Of a stretch of DNA of 58,551 nt, positions 23,442 to 54,952 are shown piece after piece (position 1 is the first letter of the stretch; each line of letters starts with the position of its first letter). The notes beneath the pieces are model-generated. The model ran no database searches, was not told the origin of the DNA, and saw only the letters and a list, made by a program, of their open reading frames with translations. The translations under genes and the position numbers were made by a program. The DNA is from Candidatus Magasanikiibacteriota bacterium (GTDB taxonomy: Bacteria > Patescibacteriota > Patescibacteriia > Magasanikbacterales > UBA922): assembly GCA_016207245.1 (NCBI GenBank), contig JACQQA010000008.1, positions 1-58,551 on the forward strand, in the 5' to 3' direction.

Positions 23442-23800
23442 ATGAATAGTGAAGAATTAAAAAAACGGACAAAAGATTTTGCTTTACGAATTTTAAAATT
23501 GGTAAATGCTCTACCAAAAACATAATTGGTTTGCCAATCGGAAACCAAATAATTCGTTCGGGAACATCTACCGCCGCCAACTATCGAGCCGCACTAAGAG
23601 CAAGGTCGACGTCGGAGTTTATTGCCAAACTGCGAATCGTAATTGAAGAAGCTGATGAGACAGTATTTTGGTTGGAAATTATTATTGAGGGCAACCTAAT
23701 GAAAAAGGAGCTTGTCGTGCCTTTGCTTCAAGAGGCCAACGAAATAGTAGCAATCATGGTTTCCACCTGTAAAACAACAACAAAAAATCTTACATCTTAA
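23442..23800 (+). pseudogene. Four-helix-bundle (TIGR02436/IVS-protein-like) gene with frameshift
   Basis: MNSEELKKRTKDFALRILKLVNALPK in one frame, NQIIRSGTSTAANYRAA..EEADETVFWLE in another; shift at ccaaaaac near 23515-23521. Confidence 0.85.
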
Positions 23801-23814
23801 ATCATAAATTATAT

Positions 23815-23887
23815 CGGGGCGTAGCTCAGTTGGTAGAGCGCCTGGTTTGGGACCAGGAGGCCGCAGGTTCAAGTCCTGTCACCCCGA
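23815..23887 (+). tRNA. tRNA-Pro (UGG), integration target
   Basis: Cloverleaf, anticodon TGG; ends in CAA rather than CCA because of the island. Confidence 0.94.
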
Positions 23888-24802
23888 CAATGTGAAACAA
23901 TCGGATTTTTCAAGAGAATAGAAATTATGGTCGGCCAAACGTACGGCGGCGTTTTCGGCGTAACCACCAACAATTTTAAAACCCCCCACCCACAACCACG
24001 ACACTTTTCTTCCCCCGAGACGGCGGTTCGTTCCGTGCTCTGCCACAAATGATTTTATTTCATTAAAATCATTCGACACCGCCAATTTTTTGGCTTGGTG
24101 AGCGGCTTTCCAGAATGTTCGCATAGGTTTGATCCATGAAATGCCTTTCCGTCCAAAATCCGATTTCTTCCGGTTGAAGTCGGTTTTTTGTTTAATGAGT
24201 TCTTCTTTTTTAACAAGATAGATTTCTTTTTCAATGGTTCCGTCTAAATAAGAGTCAACCAACTTATTTAATTTCTGATCATTTTCTTGGGTTTTGATTT
24301 CAAGATTTTGGACGAAAGAGGCATTGTTGTTTTTTAATTCTTTTTCCCACTGTTCAATTTGGGCAAGCCCTTGGCTATGCCAGTCATCGGAGATGGCGAC
24401 CGTTTGAAGATTGGTTTTTATTTGTTCGGCAAGTTCCTTTTCTTGCACATACTTTTGTGAGCACGGCCCAAGGCGTTTAGTACATCGGTAGTAGCGGTAA
24501 GTCCCACCATGACCATGTATATCCTGAAGGGAGTGTTTATCTAAATCTTGGAATGCTCGAACAACTTTTTTCCTACTTCCTGCTAGCGTGCGCTGATACC
24601 ATCCAGCTCTTTTATTATTATGGTAAGGATCAAATTCGTCACGCATGTTCTGTATAGTTTTTGGTTTTACGCTTAATATTTTACCGATACTCCTCGCGGC
24701 TTCATTAAAAGATGAATAGCCGAGATCGGCCACGGCTTCTCTATCAAAACGAGAGAGATAATAAGCGCTTATTAGCGCGAGTTTATTATTATCAGACATC
24801 AT
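23879..24802 (-). pseudogene. Chimeric ORF: N-terminus of restriction-nuclease-like protein fused to C-terminal zinc-ribbon/coiled-coil of a large serine recombinase
   Basis: YRYYRCTKRLGPCSQKY..E, LVDSYLDGTIEKEIY are recombinase-like; no catalytic resolvase domain. Confidence 0.7.
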
Positions 24803-24813
24803 AAAAAGGCGAC

Positions 24814-25617
24814 TTATTGTTCCATTATTTCCTCTGCAATTTTTTTAATTAATCCCTGTAGGCTTTGCCTATCAAGCGCTATTATTTTTTTTACACCGTA
24901 CACGAGATTGAGCTCTTTCGCCAATCTACGTATATTTTCGCGATTATCTGTAAATTTTTTGTTTTTATCCAAATAATCTAAAATAGAAATCAAAATCTTT
25001 GATGAGCGTCCCATGCCTCGCTCTAAAAGCGTTTGATAAATATCCTGAGTATACAGCAGCGTTTTAGTAAAATAATAAGGATCATCTTTTTTCATGCCAC
25101 CAAAAAATTCCGGGTCTTTTTCCCATGGCGCATATGTAAGATGCGCTGCCCACCAAAGACGAGCTAGGGAATGACGGCGAAGACCCTTTAAGTCCCCGCC
25201 CGTGCCAAACCAATGTTCAAGTACCTGATTTATCGCGGCTCTTAACTTTGTTGGGTCGTCCTTTAAATCATCATGGTTTTCTTTAATTCCCCATCGAGCA
25301 AGAGTATACTTTCTAAAAAGAACATGGCTTAAATAAACCCAAAAACGCGGATCAGACGCCTGCATTTCATCTATTTTAAAATATTCATGCAAGGCTATAG
25401 CGTTTTCCAAATCAGCAGAGGCTGGATCGCCTTTAGGAATCTTAAGTGTGGGAAGTTTTTCCTGTATCGCAATATTAGTAACGAGCAAATCTTTTTGCTT
25501 AACTTGGAATTGTTCTTCATAGTAACTTTTGAATGATTTGCTTGAACGTAAATCCGCCCGGAGCTGATCAACTGCGACGCTTCTAAAAATCTTCAAGTTG
25601 TTCTGTTTATTTTTCAT
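24814..25617 (-). CDS. DUF6339-like protein
   Basis: DLENAIALHE, ASDPRFWVYLSH, RHSLARLWW motifs (recalled family resemblance). Confidence 0.65.
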   Translation of the reverse strand: MKNKQNNLKIFRSVAVDQLRADLRSSKSFKSYYEEQFQVKQKDLLVTNIAIQEKLPTLKIPKGDPASADLENAIALHEYFKIDEMQASDPRFWVYLSHVLFRKYTLARWGIKENHDDLKDDPTKLRAAINQVLEHWFGTGGDLKGLRRHSLARLWWAAHLTYAPWEKDPEFFGGMKKDDPYYFTKTLLYTQDIYQTLLERGMGRSSKILISILDYLDKNKKFTDNRENIRRLAKELNLVYGVKKIIALDRQSLQGLIKKIAEEIMEQ

Positions 25618-26456
25618 ACTTCTTCGGTGTTATTAAAATTGAGAAGCGACAAAATACTTTCAAAATTCCTAGCCATTGGTGATTCTAGAATAATTTGTGC
25701 GGCTTCAAGGGGCGGTTTATGCGCCAACCCCTTGCTCTCTAAGATAGATTCAAGCCTGCCGAACCAATTCCGATCTGCATGATCGCTGTCTCTCCCATTA
25801 ACCTGATAAATAGCATCAGCAAGAACAGGTAGTACGATTGACGCATGAATTACTCCCTGAACTGCTTTTTCGCGCACGGTGTCGCAATAATTTTTATAAT
25901 CAGCTTTAGAAAGCTCGATGGTAATTTTATCCGAAGAGTAGTCTATCTCCATGGGACCGGTATGCCTTATCCCCTCTACTACAGCCACAAACGAAGATAG
26001 CGGTGGTCGCATTGGATCAAATTCTTTTTCTGCTATAAATGAGCAGTAGCCACCCATCGCCAGAACATCGCCATTTTCAATATCGAATTTTAACCCCTTG
26101 TAATCTGGATGGCAATCGCTTGGTTGATAATTAGCAATTTCTTCATTTGAACAAATATAGAATCCTACCGTAACTCGTTCTCTAAGAAGTTTAGATGGAA
26201 TTATAAATTTATCTGCTGTTTTTTGTGTAGAAAAGGCGTTGCGATAGAAAGTGCTTGCACATTCCGCCTCAACAATAAAAGAGGCCTTGCCCTTTTTAAT
26301 AAGCTCCTCTATGGCTTTGCTTTTTAAATCAAAAACACAAATAAGGGCGACATCCTGCTTAGATAATTCATACCGAAAATCTACGCTAAAAACTCCGCCT
26401 AGATCGTCTCCGTTCCCAAGCACAGGGTGGGGGTAAGATTTTAAATTAATTTTCAT
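25614..26456 (-). CDS. Conserved hypothetical protein (YPHPVL N-terminus)
   Basis: Overlaps both neighbouring genes; no catalytic motif recognised. Confidence 0.75.
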   Translation of the reverse strand: MKINLKSYPHPVLGNGDDLGGVFSVDFRYELSKQDVALICVFDLKSKAIEELIKKGKASFIVEAECASTFYRNAFSTQKTADKFIIPSKLLRERVTVGFYICSNEEIANYQPSDCHPDYKGLKFDIENGDVLAMGGYCSFIAEKEFDPMRPPLSSFVAVVEGIRHTGPMEIDYSSDKITIELSKADYKNYCDTVREKAVQGVIHASIVLPVLADAIYQVNGRDSDHADRNWFGRLESILESKGLAHKPPLEAAQIILESPMARNFESILSLLNFNNTEEV

Positions 26457-28320
26457 AGCTTTCAATTCCTAGGGCGTACTTCTTTTTTGAGCCAAGCTTA
26501 ACAGCAAGGCGGAGAGTTTCGCCACGTTTAATTTTAAGTCCGCCAATCAATGGCCCTTCAGACTGGTATATTTCTTTAGAATCAAGATTTCTGGCTGATA
26601 ATATTTCAGCTGGATAAGCGCTATCATCTCCTATTGTGATAATTTTAATTCCACCTTCGCAATCCTCGCGGCCAGCAATAGCAAAATGATACTCTAAATC
26701 GTCTTTTATTTTTTGAACAAAACTTCTAAAGTTTATGTTAGATGTTTTAATCCTAGACCCAGCCGTCTCTCCTTCTTCAGTACCGATTGGCTTACTATTC
26801 ATACCCCCACCGTTGCCAAAACCTCCTGGCGTTGTACCAGCTATAATCTTAGCTGATTGCTTATTTGTTACAATTCCTTTCCTAACTACCTTTTCTGTCT
26901 CAAGCGCCTCTGGTTCTTTGGTGGCACCAATCTGTCTCCAGGTTTCTTGTTCGCCAGAAAGATCGGTTTCCTCAACAGATTCAGTTTCTTGCCTATCGAC
27001 AGAATCCTTCTCGTCACTATCAGGCAAATACCTGTCTAATCCTGGGATATCCTGAGGTGGAATTGAGAACATAGCACTCATAGATTTTAAAGACTGCCTT
27101 ATAAACCCTTCTAATTCTCTAATTACAGTTGCACCATTTTCAGCGCGTTTTTCATCCCACTTATCATGTTCCGGAGGTTCCAAAGATCTAAGCAGACGGT
27201 TGCCTTTATCATCTTCACAGATAAAAACTCCGGCGTATTGCTCGCGAAGTACATGATTAGACTTATCAGTAACAAACATTTTTGGCTTTCTGGCCATCAT
27301 TATTCTACGAGGATAACCATCCTGCTTGCGCACATATAAAATGCATTTTCCTAAAAATTTTAATTCCTGTTCGAATGTTTGAGTAGAATTAACCACTGAG
27401 GCATAATAAGCTTTAGTTTCTTCTGGAGCATAGGTTTCTAAATCTTCCCGCAGGCTTTCTTTGTTAATAACTTTTGTGTCGCCATTCTTGAGCAGAACTT
27501 CAAGATCTCCGTGATGTATTGTTAGCCAAAAATTCTGGAGGACAGACTTGATTAGTTTTTCTTTCCAATCAGCGGTGGCATTATATCCCATTATAAAAAT
27601 ATCCGTGCCTCTCTCGCTTCTCCTAAAGAACGCTGGAATATTGCGTTGATTGCGTACTGCTTTATAGCCATCAATCCCATAAAATCCAGTTCTTTGCTTT
27701 ATATCGTTATCGCGGTCGATATGGCTTACGAGACGCGCCTTACCTTGAAAAACCGGCTCACCTTTTTCATTGATTGAAGAATAGAATACTGTATGAAGTG
27801 AGGACGCTGCAATCGGCGCTCCTTTTCCAATACCAAAAGAACCGCCACCAACACCCTTCATCGAGCTCATACCAGCCGCCCTAACAAGACGATACCAATT
27901 ACCCTCTATATCTTCATCAGAACCGGTAAGACCTCTGGTGTTAAAATCGCTTATTTTTAAAACGGTTAAATCTCGTGATTTTAAAAGATTTATAGCGTTA
28001 TTAAAAAATGGAACGGCTTTTTCATCATTCGGAGCAAACTTCAAACAGCGCTTCATTTTATCTGAAAGCATATCGTTTCCTGGAAGATCAGACGCTCGGA
28101 TTTTTAGCTCCTCAAATATGACTACTGCCGGTTTTGTATCATCCAACCGCGCGTCGACAGCATTCTGTATAGTTTCACGCGCGATATAACGTTCGTGGTC
28201 GCCTTCAAAATATTGAAGCTGCTCATCCGAAAAGCCGTGCGCTTCGCCATGATCCGTGCTTGGAAAAAACCACGTTAAGGCCGGCTTGGCATTTTTTGAT
28301 TTACGCGTTTTTTTTGCCAT
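26446..28320 (-). CDS. GHKL (HATPase_c/MORC-like) ATPase-domain protein
   Basis: RETIQNAVDA (N-box), ISDFNTRGL (G1), GSFGIGKG (G2), GTDIFI (G3). Confidence 0.78.
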   Translation of the reverse strand: MAKKTRKSKNAKPALTWFFPSTDHGEAHGFSDEQLQYFEGDHERYIARETIQNAVDARLDDTKPAVVIFEELKIRASDLPGNDMLSDKMKRCLKFAPNDEKAVPFFNNAINLLKSRDLTVLKISDFNTRGLTGSDEDIEGNWYRLVRAAGMSSMKGVGGGSFGIGKGAPIAASSLHTVFYSSINEKGEPVFQGKARLVSHIDRDNDIKQRTGFYGIDGYKAVRNQRNIPAFFRRSERGTDIFIMGYNATADWKEKLIKSVLQNFWLTIHHGDLEVLLKNGDTKVINKESLREDLETYAPEETKAYYASVVNSTQTFEQELKFLGKCILYVRKQDGYPRRIMMARKPKMFVTDKSNHVLREQYAGVFICEDDKGNRLLRSLEPPEHDKWDEKRAENGATVIRELEGFIRQSLKSMSAMFSIPPQDIPGLDRYLPDSDEKDSVDRQETESVEETDLSGEQETWRQIGATKEPEALETEKVVRKGIVTNKQSAKIIAGTTPGGFGNGGGMNSKPIGTEEGETAGSRIKTSNINFRSFVQKIKDDLEYHFAIAGREDCEGGIKIITIGDDSAYPAEILSARNLDSKEIYQSEGPLIGGLKIKRGETLRLAVKLGSKKKYALGIESYEN

Positions 28321-28328
28321 AGAAAAAA

Positions 28329-28544
28329 TTAAAGTTTGAATGCTCTATCACGGTTCGGAAAAGTGAATTTAGCTTTAACTTCACGGATTTTCTTTTCAAT
28401 TTCCGCAAAGATTTTATTAACCTCTTCTTCGCTGTAATCATAAGAACTGCGGTTAGAGCAATTACCGAGAATTTTTACTCGTCGTAATACTTCATTTGTA
28501 CGCCTTTCGGCTAGTCGTTTAAAATTGTCTTTCCGTTTTTCCAT
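28329..28544 (-). CDS. Small basic helical protein
   Basis: 71 aa, first gene after a consensus promoter. Confidence 0.75.
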   Translation of the reverse strand: MEKRKDNFKRLAERRTNEVLRRVKILGNCSNRSSYDYSEEEVNKIFAEIEKKIREVKAKFTFPNRDRAFKL

Positions 28545-28569
28545 ATATAAATAGATTATATTTAATGTA

Positions 28570-28598
28570 AATATAGCACACTATTATATAAATGTCAA
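28570..28598 (-). promoter_or_regulatory. Sigma70-like promoter of the effector operon
   Basis: TTGACA-17 bp-TATATT with TG on minus strand. Confidence 0.65.
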
Positions 28599-28622
28599 GT
28601 TCTGTACAAAAAGCTGCATTAT

Positions 28623-29048
28623 TTAAGATATTTTTCGTTTTGTTTTAGCCAAAAATATGGCTATGAGTTGGCACGTTTTATCTTTATCTTCGAGCACTTG
28701 GTGGCCCCAGATGTTCATAATTTTCCACCCACGACGCTTCAATGCGCGACAGTTTCGCTTATCTCTTTTTATATTAGATTCTATCTTTGCTATCCAATAT
28801 TTACGTGGAATCCTATTTCTCCAAATGCGGAATTTGTAGCCATGCCAAAAATCTCCATTTATGAACACGGCTTTCTTTTGAGAAGGCAACGCAATATCTG
28901 GTTTACCTGCCACTTTTGAATAATGTCGTTGGAAGTAGATGTTATGTTTCCGTAAATAAGAGAAGACCGTTCTTTCGATTCCGGTCTCCTTCGATTTAAT
29001 GCGCGACATTATTTCGCTTCTTTTCTTTTTTGAAAATACATCAGCCAT
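28623..29048 (-). CDS. vsr: Very short patch repair endonuclease
   Basis: MADVFSKKKRSEIMSRI, GKPDI, GDFWHG, YWIAKI..N..RD. Confidence 0.95.
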   Translation of the reverse strand: MADVFSKKKRSEIMSRIKSKETGIERTVFSYLRKHNIYFQRHYSKVAGKPDIALPSQKKAVFINGDFWHGYKFRIWRNRIPRKYWIAKIESNIKRDKRNCRALKRRGWKIMNIWGHQVLEDKDKTCQLIAIFLAKTKRKIS

Positions 29049-29052
29049 ATGT

Positions 29053-30018
29053 TTACGCTTCTAAAGCGGCGCGAATATTCTCTGCAACACGCGCAACAAC
29101 AGGAACGCTAACTGAATTACCGATTTGTTTATATAAATGAATATCTGACATTCCTTCAGGGAAGATGAAGGACTCTGGGATACCTTGTAGTCTTGCGCAC
29201 TCTCTTGGAGTCAACTTACGGATACCTTTTAGATCTCTAATGATTGGGACATTATGGCCTCCCATACCCATGCTTGCGGTTAAGGTAGGACAAGTTCCTT
29301 TGCGACTATTTTCCCGAACATAGACACGACGATATTGATAGAAACGATCTCTGAATTTTACTGCTTCTTTGAGTTTTGGATAGATAAATTTATCATCTGG
29401 CGTATAGTAATATTTAGGGTCAACAGTCTTCTCAAGAATATCCGACATTTTTCTGGTCAATTCTAGCGGATCAGGAAACCGAAATTTCATCAGCTTGCGC
29501 GGATCACGGAAAGCCACAATATAAATACGTTCGCGCGCCTGTGGGACATTGCCAAATTGCATGCTATTTAACACCTGCCCTTTAATATAATAACCAGCCT
29601 GGCGAAATTCGTCTTCAATTCTTTTGTAAGTCCGCTCATCATCATGATGTATTAGATGTTTAACATTTTCTAAAAATACTGCTACCGGTTTTCTTTTTTT
29701 TAAAATTTCAATCACCGCAAAGAGTAAATCACCCCTGCCTTTATCTGCAAACCCGCGTTTATATCCAGCAACAGAAAATGGCTGGCATGGAAACCCGCCC
29801 GTTAGAATATCAAATTTTTTTGGTATGCGCTTCATGCCCCTTTCACTAACAACATCAAATAGGCTCGCTACATCAATATCACCAAAATTAGCGCCATAGG
29901 TCAGCGCCGCCTTTTCATCTTTATCGTTGGCATAAATTGTTTCAAATCCGGCATTTTCAAATCCTATTCTGATTCCACCAATACCGGCAAACAAGTCTAT
30001 TGTCTTCAATTGTGCCAT
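29053..30018 (-). CDS. dcm: DNA (cytosine-5)-methyltransferase
   Basis: FAGIGG, GFPCQ, ENV, QARERIY, RECARLQG, YKQIGNSV. Confidence 0.96.
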   Translation of the reverse strand: MAQLKTIDLFAGIGGIRIGFENAGFETIYANDKDEKAALTYGANFGDIDVASLFDVVSERGMKRIPKKFDILTGGFPCQPFSVAGYKRGFADKGRGDLLFAVIEILKKRKPVAVFLENVKHLIHHDDERTYKRIEDEFRQAGYYIKGQVLNSMQFGNVPQARERIYIVAFRDPRKLMKFRFPDPLELTRKMSDILEKTVDPKYYYTPDDKFIYPKLKEAVKFRDRFYQYRRVYVRENSRKGTCPTLTASMGMGGHNVPIIRDLKGIRKLTPRECARLQGIPESFIFPEGMSDIHLYKQIGNSVSVPVVARVAENIRAALEA

Positions 30019-30300
30019 ATGATAGATTTATATCATTATTTTACACCATATCTGGTCTAAATAGAAGTCCTGAGTGGCGCGCCAGCAAAGCTGGCACGAA
30101 ACAACACCCCCTCGGCGAGAATGTGGGCGGGCGGCCACGGGCGGGCAAAAATTCCCTCCCCTTAAACCCCTTCCTTTTTGCCCGCGACAATTTGTGGGGT
30201 TGTAGGGGCAAAGCCCCTACACCATAACCCCCTAATAAATATTTTCAAAAAAGGTTCGTACGTCGTTCAGGATTTTCGACCAATCAAGACATTTCAAACA

Positions 30301-30330
30301 AAAAACTCCGGCGCGTTGCTGGAGTTTTTT
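30301..30330. terminator. Bidirectional terminator between convergent tRNA clusters
   Basis: aaaaactccggc-gcgtt-gctggagttttt. Confidence 0.75.
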
Positions 30331-30372
30331 GCCATACAGTATCGGGCTCGGGTTTGTGTTTTAAAGCCCTAG

Positions 30373-30445
<73 letters not shown>

Positions 30446-30464
30446 ACGGCTTCGTTTCACTAAG

Positions 30465-30538
30465 TTGCGGGGGTGGGATTTGAACCCACGACCTCGGGGT
30501 TATGGGCCCCGCGAGCTGCCGGGCTGCTCTACCCCGCG
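30465..30538 (-). tRNA. Initiator tRNA-fMet (CAU)
   Basis: C1:A72 mismatch, GGG/CCC anticodon stem, anticodon CAT. Confidence 0.92.
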
Positions 30539-30673
30539 GCGCTGTTGATTTTGGTGTCTATAATTATACCCTGATAAAATTCTGCTGTCAAGCGCCAAGA
30601 GCGAAAAAAAAGTTGACAAAACCCCTTTTTTGTGCTATACTATATATATTGATTATATATTTAAACTATTTTT

Positions 30674-49776: not shown

Positions 49777-49961
49777 GAAATAAAAAGCGCAACTAAAACA
49801 ACCCTCGCAGGTTGTTTTTTAGTAACAAAATTTTTTAGCGAGTTTTGTCTCTTGACTTTTATCATTAAATTTGTTTAAAATAGATTCGCCTTAAGATTTT
49901 CTTTTGGCACCTAACTGCAAGGAAGATGCAGGCAAGAAGAAAGAAGAAAAAGGAGGATGCC

Positions 49962-50918
49962 TTGAATGTGAACACTTCGCTTCCGTTCAGACTTGACCTT
50001 GTCCTTGACGGGACGAAGGTCAACTGCCCCGCCGCGGAACGGCGCGTCGCAGAGATCGGCACTCGCCGGTCGTTCAAGAAGGAGGCTCAAGTGGCGGCGC
50101 TTTTGCGCGCCGTCCAGTGCATGGACCTGACCACGCTCGCTGGCGATGACACGCCCGGCCGCGTGGACAGGCTGTGCGCCAAGGCTCTCCGGCCGGTCAG
50201 GCAGGAGATCCTCAACGAGCTCGGCTTGTCCGAGCTCAACCTCACTGTGGGAGCTGTCTGCGTCTATCACGCGCAGGTGGCCGAAGCAGTGAATCGGCTC
50301 CGTGGTGCGATTCCGGTGGCCGCGGTCTCTACTTCGTTCCCTGATGGTCAGGGACCGATGGAAACGCGACTCGCGGAGATCAAGGCGTCAATCAGCGCTG
50401 GCGCGACCGAGATCGACATCGTAATTGAGCGCGGTCTGGCTCTCACCGGCAAATGGCAGGCGCTCTACGATCAGATCCGCGCCTACCGCGATGCCTGCGG
50501 CGACAAAGCCCACCTCAAGACCATTCTCGGAACCGGAAATTTGGGCACGCTCACCTGCGTGGCCCAGGCATCGGCAGTGGCCATCATGGCCGGCGCTGAT
50601 TTCATCAAGACGTCCACTGGCAAGGAAGGCACGAACGCCACCCTGCCGGTGAGCCTCACGATGGTGCGGCAGATCCGCCGTTTCCAGACCGAGGTGGATT
50701 CTGGCCGACGCATCGGGTTCAAGCCCGCCGGCGGTATCAAAACCGCCAAAGACGCCATGCTCTGGCTCTCCCTCATGTTGGAGGAACTCGGAGAAGAGTG
50801 GACGCATCCGGAGCTGTTCCGCTTCGGCGCGAGTTCGCTTCTCACGGATCTGGAACTCCAACTCGAGCACTGCGCAACCGGGAAATACGCGGCCGTCAAC
50901 CACCAGCCTCTCGCATAG
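49962..50918 (+). CDS. deoC: Deoxyribose-phosphate aldolase (long type)
   Basis: DLTTLAGDDT, EIDIVI, FIKTSTGK, FKPAGGI, RFGASSLL; start approximate (SD AAGGAGG). Confidence 0.93.
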   Translation: MNVNTSLPFRLDLVLDGTKVNCPAAERRVAEIGTRRSFKKEAQVAALLRAVQCMDLTTLAGDDTPGRVDRLCAKALRPVRQEILNELGLSELNLTVGAVCVYHAQVAEAVNRLRGAIPVAAVSTSFPDGQGPMETRLAEIKASISAGATEIDIVIERGLALTGKWQALYDQIRAYRDACGDKAHLKTILGTGNLGTLTCVAQASAVAIMAGADFIKTSTGKEGTNATLPVSLTMVRQIRRFQTEVDSGRRIGFKPAGGIKTAKDAMLWLSLMLEELGEEWTHPELFRFGASSLLTDLELQLEHCATGKYAAVNHQPLA

Positions 50919-50940
50919 CGAGGTAGAAAGGAAAAAGCTA

Positions 50941-53322
50941 ATGGACGCGGAAAAAATTCGCGGCTACCTCGGAAAGCTGGACTACGATCCGGCTCCCGAG
51001 GATGCCAAGCAGGCCAAGAAATGGCTTAAGGAACATGCCCCTTTCGGTCACTTCATCAACGGCGACTGGTACGTTCCAGCCGACGGCAGTTTCCCCACCA
51101 ACAACCCGGCCACTGGCGAGCAACTCGCCAAGGTGGCGATGGGCTCTCCGGAGCACGTAGACTTGGCTGTGAAAGCCGCAGCCGACGCTTTCCCGAAGTG
51201 GAAAGCGTTCTCAGGTTTCGATCGGGCTCGGTTTCTCTACGCCATCGCCCGCGCCATTGCCAAGCACTCGCGGCTCTTCGCAGTGCTGGAGAGCATGAAC
51301 AACGGCAAGACCATTCGCGAAACTCGCGACGTGGACATTCCGCTGGTGATTCGTCACTTCTACGCGCACGCCGGCTGGGCATCGGTCATGGAGCAGGAGT
51401 TCCTTGGCTGCGCGCCGGGCGGGGTAGTTGCCGCGATCATTCCGTGGAACTTCCCTCTGCTCATGCTCGCGTGGAAAGTCGCGCCTGCGATCGCGGCCGG
51501 TAACACCGTGGTTCTCAAACCAGCGGAGACGACTCCGCTCACAGCTTTGCTGTTCGCGGATATTCTCAACGAGGTCGGTCTTCCTCCGGGTGTCGTCAAC
51601 ATCGTAACCGGTGATGGCACGACCGGAGAGGCGCTCGTAAGACATCCTACCCCGTGGAAGATCGCTTTCACGGGCTCTACCGAAGTCGGCCAGCTCATTC
51701 GCCGGGCCACGGCCGGCTCTGGCAAGCATCTCACCATGGAACTCGGCGGCAAGAGCCCGTTCATCGTCTTTCCTGACGCTGATCTGGACTCAGTCGTAGA
51801 AGGCGTCGTAGATGCCATCTTCTTCAACCAGGGGCACGTCTGCTGTGCCGGTAGCCGCCTCCTTGTCCATGAAAGCATCGTCGAGCGCTTCATCTCCAGG
51901 CTCAAGCGTCGGATGGGGAGACTTCGCATCGGCGATCCGCTGGACAAGTGTACTGATATCGGAGCCATCAATTCCGAGGCTCAATACAAAAAAATTCAGG
52001 ACCTCATCTTGAAGGGCAAGAGCGAGGGCGCGACCTGCTGGCAGCCGGACTGTTCTCCCCCGGACGGCGGTTTCTTCATTCCGCCGACCCTCTTCACTGA
52101 TGTGCAACCGTCAAACACCATCGCGCAAACGGAAATCTTCGGTCCGGTGCTGGCGGCCATGACTTTCCGCACTCCGGATGATGCGGTGGCGCTCGTCAAC
52201 AACACTCCGTATGGACTGGCCGCTTCGGTCTGGACTACGGATACCGGCACCGCGCTGGACATGGCCAAGCGCGTCAAGGCCGGGACAGTCTGGGTTAATT
52301 CTCACAACCTGTTTGACGCGGCCGCGCCATTCGGCGGGTACCGCATGAGCGGGTTTGGACGCGAGGGCGGTCGCGATGGTTTCCGCGACATGCTCTTGGA
52401 AAAAACCCCGCCGTTCCAATCATTTGAAACTGCTTCTGTTCCAGTTCCTCCTGCTACCGTCACGTCTTCCCCGCCTGTAACTATCGATCGGACATACCGA
52501 TTCCTGGTGGGCGGGAAACTCGTCCGTCCCGATGGCGGCGCAAGCTACCACGTATACGGCAAGGACCGAGCCATTCTCGGCACGGTCGGCGCCGCGAATC
52601 GCAAGGATGTGCGCAACGCGGTTCAGGCAGCTCGCGCAGCTGCGGACTCCTGGGCCAATCAGTCCGCTCACCTGCGGGCGCAGATTCTCTTTTTCCTGGC
52701 CGAGAATATGGCAAACGAGCGGGAACGTTTCATCGCTTGTCTCATCAGCGCTGGAATCTCTCGCTTGCACGCAGAGCACGAACTGACAGACTCGATTGAG
52801 CGGCTGTTCTACTGGGCCGGGTACGCGGACAAGTTCGGCGGAGAAATTCAGTCAGTTCCCGGCCGTCTTTTCGTCACCACAACCAACGAGCCGATCGGCG
52901 TTTTGTGTCTGCGGGCTCCGGATGAGCAAGCGCTTCTCGGTTTCGTATCGCTCGTTGCTCCGGCAATCGCTATGGGTAACACTGTAGTGGTTGTTCCGGG
53001 CATTCAGCCCTTGCCCGCGCTGGATTTGCTCCAGGTCATTCAACATTCGGATGTGCCGGCCGGAGCGGTCAACATCCTCACTGCCGAAGACCCTGATGCG
53101 CTCGCGAAGCTACTCGCCGAACACATGGATGTTGACGGCGTTTGGTCGTTCGGCACTACCGAGGGTTCGGTCGAGGTTGAGAAAGCCTCGGCCCACAACA
53201 TGAAGCGCACGTGGGTCAACTACGGTCAGCGCTTTGATTGGTCAGGCTCGTGGGGCAGGAGCAAGCGCTTTCTCTACGAGGCCACGCAGGCCAAAACTAT
53301 CTGGGTTCCGTTCGGAGCCTAG
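50941..53322 (+). CDS. Two-domain (ALDH16-like) aldehyde dehydrogenase
   Basis: PWNFP, FTGSTEVG, MELGGKS, VCCAG, EIFGPV plus a second Rossmann-like domain. Confidence 0.9.
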   Translation: MDAEKIRGYLGKLDYDPAPEDAKQAKKWLKEHAPFGHFINGDWYVPADGSFPTNNPATGEQLAKVAMGSPEHVDLAVKAAADAFPKWKAFSGFDRARFLYAIARAIAKHSRLFAVLESMNNGKTIRETRDVDIPLVIRHFYAHAGWASVMEQEFLGCAPGGVVAAIIPWNFPLLMLAWKVAPAIAAGNTVVLKPAETTPLTALLFADILNEVGLPPGVVNIVTGDGTTGEALVRHPTPWKIAFTGSTEVGQLIRRATAGSGKHLTMELGGKSPFIVFPDADLDSVVEGVVDAIFFNQGHVCCAGSRLLVHESIVERFISRLKRRMGRLRIGDPLDKCTDIGAINSEAQYKKIQDLILKGKSEGATCWQPDCSPPDGGFFIPPTLFTDVQPSNTIAQTEIFGPVLAAMTFRTPDDAVALVNNTPYGLAASVWTTDTGTALDMAKRVKAGTVWVNSHNLFDAAAPFGGYRMSGFGREGGRDGFRDMLLEKTPPFQSFETASVPVPPATVTSSPPVTIDRTYRFLVGGKLVRPDGGASYHVYGKDRAILGTVGAANRKDVRNAVQAARAAADSWANQSAHLRAQILFFLAENMANERERFIACLISAGISRLHAEHELTDSIERLFYWAGYADKFGGEIQSVPGRLFVTTTNEPIGVLCLRAPDEQALLGFVSLVAPAIAMGNTVVVVPGIQPLPALDLLQVIQHSDVPAGAVNILTAEDPDALAKLLAEHMDVDGVWSFGTTEGSVEVEKASAHNMKRTWVNYGQRFDWSGSWGRSKRFLYEATQAKTIWVPFGA

Positions 53323-53443
53323 AGCGATAGCGTTCTTTTTCGTTGAGTGCGGACAACAATATTCATAGGGAGGTAAGGAGGGATTCTGTAGCCGCACCTA
53401 CAGAACCCAACTTGAAAATATAATTAAATTGTGTTTTCAAGAT

Positions 53444-53477
53444 AAAAAACAATCCGCCGAAGAGGCGGATTGTTTTT
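53444..53477. terminator. Bidirectional terminator/palindrome, inverted copy at 54889-54922
   Basis: aaaaaacaatccgccgaagaggcggattgttttt. Confidence 0.7.
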
Positions 53478-53579
53478 TTATTACACACTATTGATTTATA
53501 TTTTGGTTTATGGTAAAACAAAAAAGCTGGGCAAGTTGTCCAGCGAGTCAAAACAGATAACTACGTGAGGAGGATAACC

Positions 53580-54779
53580 ATGGCAACCGCGCTCGTTCTC
53601 GTGCTCGACGCAGTGGGAATCACCACGCTCGAGTATTTGCTCGATCACTACTCGGGGTCAGTTCATTTTCCCAACCTCTCGCGTCTCGGCTTGGGCACTC
53701 TGCTCGACGAGCGTCATCGCAGTCGCTTCGGTCCGTTTGATGGCGGTTCTTATGCCGCATGTCTGGAACAGGCATCCGCTTCGGCTGACAGCGTGGTCGG
53801 GCACCGCGAGATGATGGGCATCGTGGATGCTCGCATCTACGACCTTTTCCCGGACGGTTTTCCTACTAACTACATCGCGGCGCTGGAAGATCGTATCGGC
53901 CGCAAGACAATGTTCAACCAGATGGCCGGCGGAGTGGAGGCGATTGAGCAGAACGCCGCGGAGCACGCGCGAACCGGCCACCCAATCGCGTACGCGAGCA
54001 TGTGCGATCCGTTGCTCCAGCTTGCGATGGATGAAGCCGTCATTCCGGTTTCGGAACAGCGCCGGATCGCGGACATCGCTCTCGTCTTGGCGCTGGAGAT
54101 GGGAATTCCGATTACTCGGGTCATTGATCGGGCTTTCGTCAAGACGCCGGACGGCGAGTATGTTCGCACCGCCAATCGGCACGACGCGGTCCTGCCGCTT
54201 CCGGGAAGCACACTCGTGGATATTCTGACTGAACGGGGTGTTCGGACAGTCGCTGTTGGCAAAACCAGCGATCTCGTGAATACCGTTTACAGCGAGGAGC
54301 TTCATCTCTCGGCCGTTGACCAAGGGGTTGACCTTCGCTTCGTGCACCCAAAGAAGAAGGACACCAATCCATTCACAATGCAGGGCGTCTTGCACGCTCT
54401 CAACGACGCGCGAAACGACACATTCATCTTCGCGAACTGCGTGGATACTGACGCGCTCTACGGTCACACCCGCGATGTGGACGGCGCCATCCACTGCATT
54501 GAGGAGTGTGACCGCGTTCTGCCGATGATTGAAGCCCGGCTTCAGATGGGCGATCTCCTGATCATAACCGCTGACCACGGCATGGAGCATCGAGCTGACT
54601 ATGGCTACCACAACCGCGAGCCTGTTCCGCTCTTGGTCAAGCGCGTCGGCCGCGGCAAGGATCTCGGCGGAATGGAATTCGGCCAAACTCTAGGTCTGAC
54701 GCAAGTCGGCGATCTCGTGGCGCAGATGTTCGGGTGCGCCGGAGAATTTCGCCGGTCTATTATTAAAATTCCCGCCTGA
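53580..54779 (+). CDS. deoB: Phosphopentomutase-like protein
   Basis: LVLDAVG, DSVVGHRE, NRHD, VGKTSD, DALYGHTRD, TADHG. Confidence 0.82.
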   Translation: MATALVLVLDAVGITTLEYLLDHYSGSVHFPNLSRLGLGTLLDERHRSRFGPFDGGSYAACLEQASASADSVVGHREMMGIVDARIYDLFPDGFPTNYIAALEDRIGRKTMFNQMAGGVEAIEQNAAEHARTGHPIAYASMCDPLLQLAMDEAVIPVSEQRRIADIALVLALEMGIPITRVIDRAFVKTPDGEYVRTANRHDAVLPLPGSTLVDILTERGVRTVAVGKTSDLVNTVYSEELHLSAVDQGVDLRFVHPKKKDTNPFTMQGVLHALNDARNDTFIFANCVDTDALYGHTRDVDGAIHCIEECDRVLPMIEARLQMGDLLIITADHGMEHRADYGYHNREPVPLLVKRVGRGKDLGGMEFGQTLGLTQVGDLVAQMFGCAGEFRRSIIKIPA

Positions 54780-54952
54780 ATCGCTCATTCTCGTTCATCC
54801 AGCCTTTGATCGGATGAGCGCGTAAGCCCATCCGGATCCCTTGGTTGATAAATAATTTGTCAATTGAGGGAGATGGGTTTGCAAAATTAAAAACAGTCCG
54901 CCTCTTCGGCGGATTGTTTTTTGCATTCTGTTATCTGCATTCTGCATCCTGT

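Follow-up and report, generated by a model that had tools for sequence, protein, structure and literature searches.

What is a cytosine methylase doing beside a GHKL ATPase in a tRNA-linked island of a small groundwater genome, and do the genes that surround them form a defence system? The question is raised by a 58,551-nucleotide (nt) stretch of DNA from Candidatus Magasanikiibacteriota bacterium (contig JACQQA010000008.1 of assembly GCA_016207245.1, positions 1 to 58,551 of the forward strand; hereafter the window), in which seven open reading frames (ORFs), all co-oriented and tightly packed, occupy the minus strand from 23879 to 30018. We consider it probable that these genes represent a restriction-modification (R-M)-like, methylation-gated cassette in a mobile island, from which a NOV_C nuclease and a recombinase were lost by one deletion. 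The evidence that carries this reading is the membership of three of the proteins (A, B and C) in a named candidate defence family, the conservation of this trio beside exchangeable methylases across many phyla, the fold of A, and the structure of the seventh ORF, which is a chimera of two broken genes. The features to which we refer are as follows (lengths in amino acids, aa).

29053-30018, minus strand: dcm, 321 aa, Dcm-type C5 cytosine DNA methyltransferase (PF00145, 5.6e-83; TIGR00675, 3.1e-85)
28623-29048, minus strand: vsr, 141 aa, very-short-patch mismatch endonuclease (PF03852, 2.5e-20; TIGR00632, 8.4e-29, above cut-off)
28570-28598, minus strand: promoter-like TTGACA-17-TATATT in the spacer between vsr and the small gene, a consensus match only
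28329-28544, minus strand: small gene, 71 aa, apparently helical protein conserved as the cassette's fourth member
26446-28320, minus strand: A, 624 aa, GHKL ATPase with transducer domain, PDC-M33A
25614-26465, minus strand: B, 283 aa, PDC-M33B, start probably the ATG at 26456
24814-25617, minus strand: C, 267 aa, DUF6339 (PF19866, 1.7e-38), PDC-M33C
23879-24802, minus strand: 307-aa ORF, a chimera and remnant of two genes, extending 10 nt into tRNA-Pro
24518-24802, minus strand: first 95 codons of a NOV_C-family nuclease gene, nuclease domain gone
23879-24532, minus strand: tail of a large serine recombinase (residues 91-307 of the 307-aa ORF), resolvase and recombinase domains gone
23815-23888, plus strand: tRNA-Pro (TGG), from ARAGORN and Rfam, its 3' end being the left junction of the insert
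30019-30276, no strand: right end of the insert, non-coding, with the junction CGAC recurring at 30277-30280, from comparison with the empty site of a congeneric genome (G402)

The spacing of the genes is 4 nt between dcm and vsr, 78 nt between vsr and the small gene, 8 nt between the small gene and A, and 11 nt between C and the 307-aa ORF; A and B overlap by 20 nt (11 nt if B begins at the ATG) and B and C by 4 nt. A preliminary description made from the sequence of the window had proposed seven co-oriented genes in a tRNA-linked island, an abutting or overlapping 71/624/283/267-aa block with TTGACA-17-TATATT upstream, and the labels dcm, vsr and DUF6339-like. All of this is borne out by the seven minus-strand ORFs and the empty site in a relative, by the coordinates and the site itself, and by the matches to PF00145, PF03852/TIGR00632 and PF19866, respectively; its start coordinate of 24500 falls inside the 307-aa ORF and cuts it. 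The promoter-like site (28598-28570) has a TG ahead of the -10 element and 11 of 12 consensus matches, and it ranks at the top of 23 promoter-like sites in the region, shuffled sequence giving a mean of 15.1 sites. Dcm is the sole PF00145 gene found by a search of its own genome. Of the parts of a type II R-M system, the DNA methyltransferase is present (by the PF00145 match), and there is no cognate restriction endonuclease in the locus, where just the first 95 NOV_C-family codons remain, with no nuclease domain. The six ORFs other than the 307-aa ORF are full length relative to their homologues.

The first part of the answer is that the core of the cassette already bears a name. A matches the PADLOC model PDC-M33A with an expectation value (E) of 4.9e-142, residues 16-623 aligning with positions 4-625 of the 627-position profile; B matches PDC-M33B with E 4.5e-61 (residues 4-275 on positions 1-283 of 289) and C matches PDC-M33C with E 1.5e-36, and no PADLOC models besides these three match A, B or C. 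The three genes are adjacent and co-oriented, and their order is retained in other loci. The preliminary description, which had taken the system to be uncharacterised and unnamed and had counted a match to a named system against itself, is superseded on this point, as the name exists, although it marks a candidate only. A full-text literature search found no paper on PDC-M33 or DUF6339. According to the accessible part of the source, the PDC systems came from a 'guilt-by-embedding' approach applied to BREX, DISARM and type I R-M loci (bioRxiv 10.1101/2024.01.29.577857).

The second part concerns how widely, and in what company, this core occurs. Among 8,000 candidates scored, 464 relatives of A were found at E <= 0.001. 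In species-representative genomes, 129 A loci were confirmed by tblastn among 352 pattern-matched stretches, their hosts including Patescibacteria, Bacteroidota, Pseudomonadota, Bacillota, Deinococcota and Planctomycetota among other phyla; the best 80 of these foreign loci, together with the window's own, gave a set of 81 loci whose ORFs were searched with the seven window proteins using jackhmmer. A was found in 81, B in 75, C in 72, the 71-aa protein in 59, Dcm in 58, Vsr in 31 and the 307-aa ORF in 7, with the misses mostly at contig ends; all seven matches to the 307-aa ORF are full-length recombinase genes on the opposite strand. Of the foreign loci, 49 have 2.5 kb or more of sequence upstream and 3.5 kb or more downstream (the full-flank set); among these, A occurs in 49, B and C in 48 each, the 71-aa protein in 36 and Vsr in 20. 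The A-B-C trio is intact in 48 of these loci and a Dcm or D12 methylase accompanies it in 43 (Dcm in 38, D12 in 6), so that the co-occurrence of the genes with each other and with methylases, which the preliminary description had put forward for checking, is seen across phyla.

The immediate surroundings of the trio are more variable. The gene right after C belongs to one cluster in eight loci, and the two members scanned are D12 N6-adenine methylases with DUF7226; other genes 3' of C are not conserved, and among them are genes of other conflict systems, encoding a SMODS-like protein, an ABC ATPase, a TOTE primase-helicase, HNH_2 and DUF6119. Among 72,556 plasmid records, 22 carry relatives of A, as do 2 among 50,697 phage records (one beside a prophage integrase). 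In the L. salivarius plasmid pMP1046A, the cassette is flanked on one side by a type I S/M pair and on the other by a further methyltransferase plus a helicase; on a Deinococcus plasmid it comes after dcm-vsr, and in a C. innocuum phage it adjoins the integrase with a methyltransferase downstream. Across 45 loci, pairwise identities correlate at 0.92 for A-B, 0.89 for A-C, 0.90 for B-C and 0.56 for A-Dcm, and among distant pairs only at 0.30 for A-Dcm versus 0.86 for A-B; these loci are mutually related, and the figures are to be taken as descriptive. The correlations indicate that the A-B-C trio passes down together as a unit, whereas its methylase is exchanged.

Two variants of the locus were observed in passing. 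In four Clostridia-type loci without a detected methylase (L055:3074-5818, L057:1764-4508, L058:2094-5159 and L074:1560-4613), a protein of 914-1021 aa lies just upstream instead. These upstream proteins belong to no Pfam or PADLOC family, the exception being a Sigma70_r4 match in L058, which is also found in the 780-aa upstream protein of another locus (L077); they could be an unrecognised methylase or specificity subunit. In a Flavobacteriales metagenome-assembled genome (L056:8924-11591), A appears as three overlapping ORFs, the last of which matches the C-terminus of A and the whole of B, an arrangement that either stems from frameshifts in the long-read assembly or is a naturally occurring fusion of A and B.

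The identity of A as a GHKL ATPase, the third part of the answer, is supported by both its motifs and its predicted fold. The residues of motif I (ExxxNxxD; E49, N53, D56), motif II (DxxxxGxxG; D125, N127, T128, G130, G133) and the glycine-rich lid of motif III (G160, G163, G165, K166) are each conserved in 95% or more of the 71 A homologues, and the claim of the preliminary description that the 624-aa protein has all GHKL motifs therefore stands, in agreement with the fold. Outside the motifs, R344, E381 and H385 are nearly invariant, the latter two each in at least 95% of sequences. The AlphaFold model of A (mean predicted local distance difference test, pLDDT, 72) is ordered over approximately 41-417 and 522-624, and between these regions it predicts a long linker (residues 418-521; window 27070-26758), disordered, strongly acidic and including a Gly-rich stretch, which joins the ATPase module to a C-terminal beta domain (about 522-624). 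Over its GHKL and middle/transducer domains, the model was aligned by Foldseek with Hsp90, TRAP1 and Topo VI-B (E 1.4e-9 to 5e-7, probability 1.00), the template modelling (TM) score reaching only ~0.3 because A consists of several domains; the predicted structure thus confirms a GHKL plus transducer fold. The profile of A has no sequence match in the PDB. Membership of A in HATPase_c_3/MORC by sequence was considered and rejected, as none of 15 A members match the Pfam HATPase_c families at E <= 1.

The remaining members of the block are less readily classified. The model of B (pLDDT 88.3) comprises two beta-sandwich domains followed by a helical bundle and has no PDB structure match at E <= 0.001 by Foldseek. 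The Foldseek matches of B are to generic Ig/FN3-like beta-sandwiches only (E >= 2.8e-3, TM ~0.23), and we assign B to no family. The conserved residues of B (P12, P14, C69, T72, R75, W234 and Q257) form no nuclease motif, and B as modelled is without a nuclease fold. In C, conservation reaches 90% or more of 70 sequences at D89, R91, W93, R153 and R200. The profile of B found no sequence match in the PDB, look-alikes of B and C in the ESM Atlas are unnamed or fall under useful scores, and PHROGs returned nothing meaningful. The 71-aa gene, in contrast to the three named genes, is new here as a conserved fourth member of the cassette: it lies directly upstream of A (or of dcm) in 59 of the 81 loci and in 36 of the 49 with full flanks. 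Its motif F..LA..R...L..L..LGN..NR..Y.Y.E..V.KIF is well kept across 58 sequences, the protein looks largely helical from its sequence, and it matches no family in the profile libraries searched (including Pfam, PADLOC and PHROGs).

Prediction of an A-B complex gave an ipSAE of 0.47 against 0.00 for the best of three controls, the mark applied being reached by 58 of 80 solved complexes and by 2 of 110 mismatched pairs, with only 7 of the 80 solved complexes, along with both passing mismatches, at ipSAE <=0.60. The runs agree in at least 67% of contacts, with a partner pLDDT of at least 79. Together these values lend weak support to a contact between A and B, and of the multi-subunit complex that the preliminary description had envisaged it is the A-B pair alone that the predictions weakly suggest.

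What, then, is the seventh ORF, which the preliminary description had called a nuclease-like gene? Its residues 2-95 align with residues 1-93 of a 268-aa protein (P0242) at 62% identity, and its residues 91-307 align at 82% identity with residues 289-505 of a large serine recombinase of 523 aa (P0122; PF00239, PF07508 and PF13408), whose catalytic N-terminal 288 residues are gone from the ORF, leaving only a weak Zn_ribbon_recom match. The P0242 family has 519 representatives, and in 3 of the 10 relatives scanned NOV_C (PF13020) lies behind the N-terminal domain. The family alignment carries the GYDF...VEVKG pattern of a PD-(D/E)xK nuclease, and the C-termini of relatives match the nuclease end of the PADLOC TmtA models (E 2.5e-10 to 6e-15). 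To judge from the sequence, the 307-aa ORF is an in-frame deletion fusion that joins NOV_C codon ~95 to recombinase codon ~289 near window positions 24520-24530. The gene is therefore a broken chimera without a nuclease domain, both catalytic domains having been removed, and with this fusion the present copy would have lost its only recognisable nuclease together with its mobility enzyme.

The family to which the lost nuclease belonged has its own association with Dcm operons. The N-terminal NOV_C fragment has no relative in 400 other genomes of the phylum or in the ORFs of the 81 A loci. In metagenomes, a single-protein query found nothing and an alignment query gave 80 NOV_C-family loci, with Dcm nearby in 42, Vsr in 13 and PDC-M33 parts in 3 (L161, L163 and L169). 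In one of the latter, a diverged contig (L163), C is followed by a NOV_C-family gene in the order of the window at 65% nucleotide identity, protein identity being 65% for C and 62% for the NOV_C N-terminal domain. A recurrent operon among the metagenome loci (L101-L105, L109-L112, L137 and L148) consists of Dcm, a ~700-aa HATPase_c_3 plus HATPase_c protein, a ~350-470-aa protein (with a weak Response_reg match in 2 of the 4 scanned) and a ~265-aa NOV_C protein. Overall, a HATPase_c_3-type GHKL gene is near NOV_C in 20 of the 80 loci and directly upstream of it in 9 of the 32 with enough sequence. Taken together, the window and the metagenome operons indicate that one stand-alone Tiamat-type nuclease family closes the Dcm operons of two unrelated GHKL ATPase families.

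The boundaries of the island can be placed exactly by comparison with G402, a genome of the same genus in which tRNA-Gly and tRNA-Met come within ~90 nt after tRNA-Ala, tRNA-Phe and tRNA-Pro. In G402, the stretch 3' of tRNA-Pro corresponds to window 30277-30592 at 93.7%, and its empty site, CCCCGAC-CAAT..., equals the left junction of the window, ...CCCCGAC (23882-23888), joined to the right junction, CGAC-CAATCAAG (30277 onward). Since tRNA-Pro in G402 is contiguous with the sequence from 30277 onward, positions 23889-30276 (6,388 nt) are an insert at the 3' end of tRNA-Pro. The left junction falls after the CGAC at 23885-23888, which is the only sequence common to both junctions, and no attachment (att) direct repeat longer than these 4 nt was found at the island ends. 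GC content is 0.38-0.41 over 24-30 kb versus ~0.42-0.48 in both flanks. The region is thus a 6.39-kb mobile island in a small groundwater genome. Of the marks of an integrative element with a large serine recombinase, one is present, namely an insertion where a close relative has an empty site, and an intact recombinase with a resolvase catalytic domain is missing, only the part equivalent to residues 289-505 of 523 being left. A second congener (G401) has a recombinase tail beside its tRNA-Pro, where a contig ends. Groundwater runs from two studies (X5 being the run of the second) contain contigs that are identical to the island, and a run of a third study contains copies of A and dcm that are 5-10% diverged. 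The empty-site form was not seen in four groundwater runs, in which no contig joins tRNA-Pro to 30277, uncovered parts being uninformative.

How might such a cassette work? On the reading we prefer, Dcm would methylate the host's own DNA at C5 of cytosine and in this way mark self, and Vsr would repair the T:G mismatches that arise from deamination of 5-methylcytosine, limiting the mutational cost. The separately promoted and translationally coupled small-A-B-C block may then act as an ATP-driven sensor or motor on unmarked DNA, and we infer, in line with the preliminary description, that it could attack unmethylated DNA or trigger abortive infection. As the methylase is swapped far more freely than A-B-C, the trio is probably not sequence-specific itself, and it would probably read methylation status either generically or via the methylase. 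The ancestral order here would have been C, a stand-alone NOV_C nuclease gene and a large serine recombinase gene, with one deletion fusing the first ~95 codons of the nuclease in frame to the last ~217 of the recombinase; the effector in this lineage may have been this NOV_C nuclease, now lost. A type IV (methylation-dependent) reading was rejected because the cassette travels with its own methylase. An extension of the proposed mechanism, which we offer as speculative and regard as unlikely, is that the nuclease-less small-A-B-C core is a methylation-gated, MORC-like, ATP-driven clamp on unmarked DNA that can be armed in trans by plug-in NOV_C nucleases, such that two unrelated ATPase families share one module, a 'split Tiamat'.

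Several observations weigh against a methylation-gated defence cassette that once used a NOV_C nuclease. PDC-M33 is one of 145 untested candidates as given in the part of the report available to us (Payne et al., bioRxiv 10.1101/2024.01.29.577857). Searches of the 71-aa protein, A and B revealed neither a nuclease nor any other effector, the profile of C found no sequence match in the PDB, and no longer, fused forms of B were found, the last being weak evidence. A methylase was not detected with the Dcm or D12 queries in 6 of the 49 full-flank loci (L032, L050, L055, L057, L064 and L074). A NOV_C-family gene is near the cassette in none of the 80 PDC-M33 genome loci, and the nuclease is thus not a general component of the cassette. 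The NOV_C-family gene of the diverged metagenome contig (L163:807-1481) matches its profile only over 1-167 of 270 and is without the GYDF/EVK motif, and this nuclease may also be decaying. By the calibration of the tool, a score such as that of the A-B pair is more often wrong than right unless the pairing is likely beforehand, and the putative promoter of the block is only a consensus match.

Four other explanations were considered. The locus could hold two nested systems, with Dcm, Vsr and the NOV_C nuclease forming a type II R-M system whose methylase serves NOV_C, and small-A-B-C forming an independent cassette embedded within it. The frequency of Dcm and Vsr near the NOV_C family in metagenomes (42 and 13 of 80 loci) speaks for such nesting, as do the L. 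salivarius copy, which sits among R-M genes, and the fact that, in the accessible part of the source, PDC candidates are defined by embedding in BREX, DISARM or type I R-M (bioRxiv 10.1101/2024.01.29.577857). However, in 38 of the 49 full-flank loci Dcm accompanies A-B-C with no NOV_C gene, which is found in 0 of 80 genome loci, and the GHKL ATPase gene between Dcm and NOV_C in 9 of 32 loci points to a shared ATPase-nuclease logic over chance, and we consider nesting improbable. Similarly improbable in our estimate is exclusion without any nuclease, whereby A would dimerise on ATP and clamp or compact unmarked DNA, blocking its replication or expression in a BREX-like manner. Eukaryotic MORC ATPases provide the model for ATP-driven dimerisation and DNA clamping or compaction that is invoked here, and the GHKL plus transducer architecture of A, the swappable methylase, and the lack of a nuclease fold or motif in A or B and of a conserved nuclease neighbour would all fit; against this, C could be an unrecognised nuclease, and the invariant E381 and H385 of A could be catalytic.

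The island might instead be a decaying relic, immobilised and functionally dead except for methylation after loss of the nuclease and recombinase. That the deletion seen in the chimera took two catalytic domains, and that no att repeat longer than 4 nt was found, would be expected of a relic, but the other six ORFs are full length relative to homologues, the sequence is identical in contigs of the second study's run, X5, and most family members, if they work at all, do so without a NOV_C gene; we regard this explanation as very improbable. The one to which we give least credence is that A is a repair accessory, a MutL-like partner that stimulates Vsr on 5-methylcytosine-derived T:G mismatches in a genome without MutL, and that there is no defence system. 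The MutL transducer domain PF01119 was indeed not found in the genome itself (84% complete), and a functional link between MutL and Vsr is discussed in the part of the earlier survey available to us (Iyer et al. 2008, PMC2292703); yet just 20 of the 49 full-flank loci have Vsr with the cassette, adenine methylases, which pose no T:G problem, also occur as its partners, and the cassette is carried on plasmids and a prophage. We therefore retain the R-M-like cassette as the preferred reading.

Three further observations concern sequence outside the island. Between tRNA-Phe and tRNA-Pro (window 23531-23800, plus strand) lies an 89-aa ORF of the 23S rRNA intervening-sequence protein family (PF05635, 2.8e-11); no rRNA gene is present in the window. 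A high-GC block at 49900-54800 (0.54-0.63 vs ~0.44 elsewhere), with plus-strand ORFs of 330, 793 and 404 aa and no rRNA, may be a second foreign segment. In G401, a homologue of the window's 741-aa DUF5667 protein (L094; G401:C2:1727-3885) is broken by one TGA and one TAA, and is either a pseudogene or an assembly error.

If the cassette is a working defence system, it would be an R-M-like machine centred on a GHKL ATPase, the same kind of enzyme as the eukaryotic MORCs, GHKL ATPases that silence foreign DNA. PDC-M33 is widespread, with its 129 confirmed A relatives in many phyla, on plasmids and in prophage, and has no recognisable nuclease; cassettes of this type also circulate in very small groundwater genomes. 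To the named family the present locus adds an exact insertion with its empty site, a fourth gene, the predicted fold of B, the way in which the methylase is exchanged and a connection with the NOV_C family.

How the cassette relates to known systems can be stated by degrees of likeness. To PDC-M33 it corresponds nearly end to end over the three hidden Markov models, with equal gene order and orientation; the model names, as far as the accessible description goes, cover three genes, and the locus adds a steady methylase partner, Vsr and the 71-aa gene, for which no PDC-M33 model is among the matches. BREX combines methyltransferase-marked self with an ATPase-containing multi-gene block that has no recognised nuclease, and the cassette resembles it in having a methylase and an ATPase-containing multi-gene block without a recognised nuclease. 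In contrast to BREX, the cassette is much smaller, mostly methylates cytosine at C5 rather than adenine at N6, and contains no homologues of PglZ, BrxC, BrxL or PglX, and no BREX models were matched in a PADLOC search of the window proteins.

Closer parallels come from operons built around GHKL ATPases. In the prokaryotic MORC/paraMORC R-M operons, as portrayed in the available part of the survey, a GHKL plus S5/transducer ATPase stands beside cytosine methylases and Vsr and is proposed to be an ATP-driven R-M arm, and the mark given for paraMORC2 is an ExxxH conserved in the C-terminal portion of its S5 domain (Iyer, Abhiman and Aravind 2008, PMC2292703). Similarly, the GHKL plus transducer ATPase A adjoins a cytosine methylase and Vsr, and has an ExxxH (E381, H385) after its transducer domain, a likeness drawn to the published description rather than to a reference sequence. 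Unlike the paraMORC operons as described there, the cassette has no SFII helicase and no fused or conserved nuclease, and A has no Pfam HATPase_c_3 match. The HK-like (HATPase_c_3 plus HEF_HK) and RR-like (Response_reg_2) pairs, linked to C5 methylases in the accessible part of their description (Bellieny-Rabelo et al. 2021, PMC8011034), share with the cassette a Dcm-linked operon organised around a GHKL ATPase and a small partner protein. The pairs (PF19191/PF19192) differ in their domains, as A, B and their 15 and 20 homologues give no Pfam matches to HATPase_c_3, HEF_HK, Response_reg or Response_reg_2. The metagenome Dcm/HATPase_c_3 operons, as far as that description allows, resemble these pairs and end in the NOV_C family whose remnant follows C in the window.

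The last comparison is with Tiamat (TmtA), which, in the portion of the report available to us, is a GHL ATPase fused to a NOV_C/DUF3883 PD-(D/E)xK nuclease that is tethered by a flexible linker (bioRxiv 10.64898/2026.09.30.754977). Set against that account, ATPase and nuclease are separate genes in the cassette, A has no TmtA match, its C-terminal beta domain has no NOV_C match, and the nuclease is truncated in the window and missing from the 80 genome loci examined. What the two have in common is the combination of a GHKL-type ATPase with a NOV_C nuclease, and the acidic linker predicted to be disordered in A is similar to the tether of Tiamat. The 307-aa remnant ties the cassette to the Tiamat-type NOV_C family and offers a concrete candidate for its effector.

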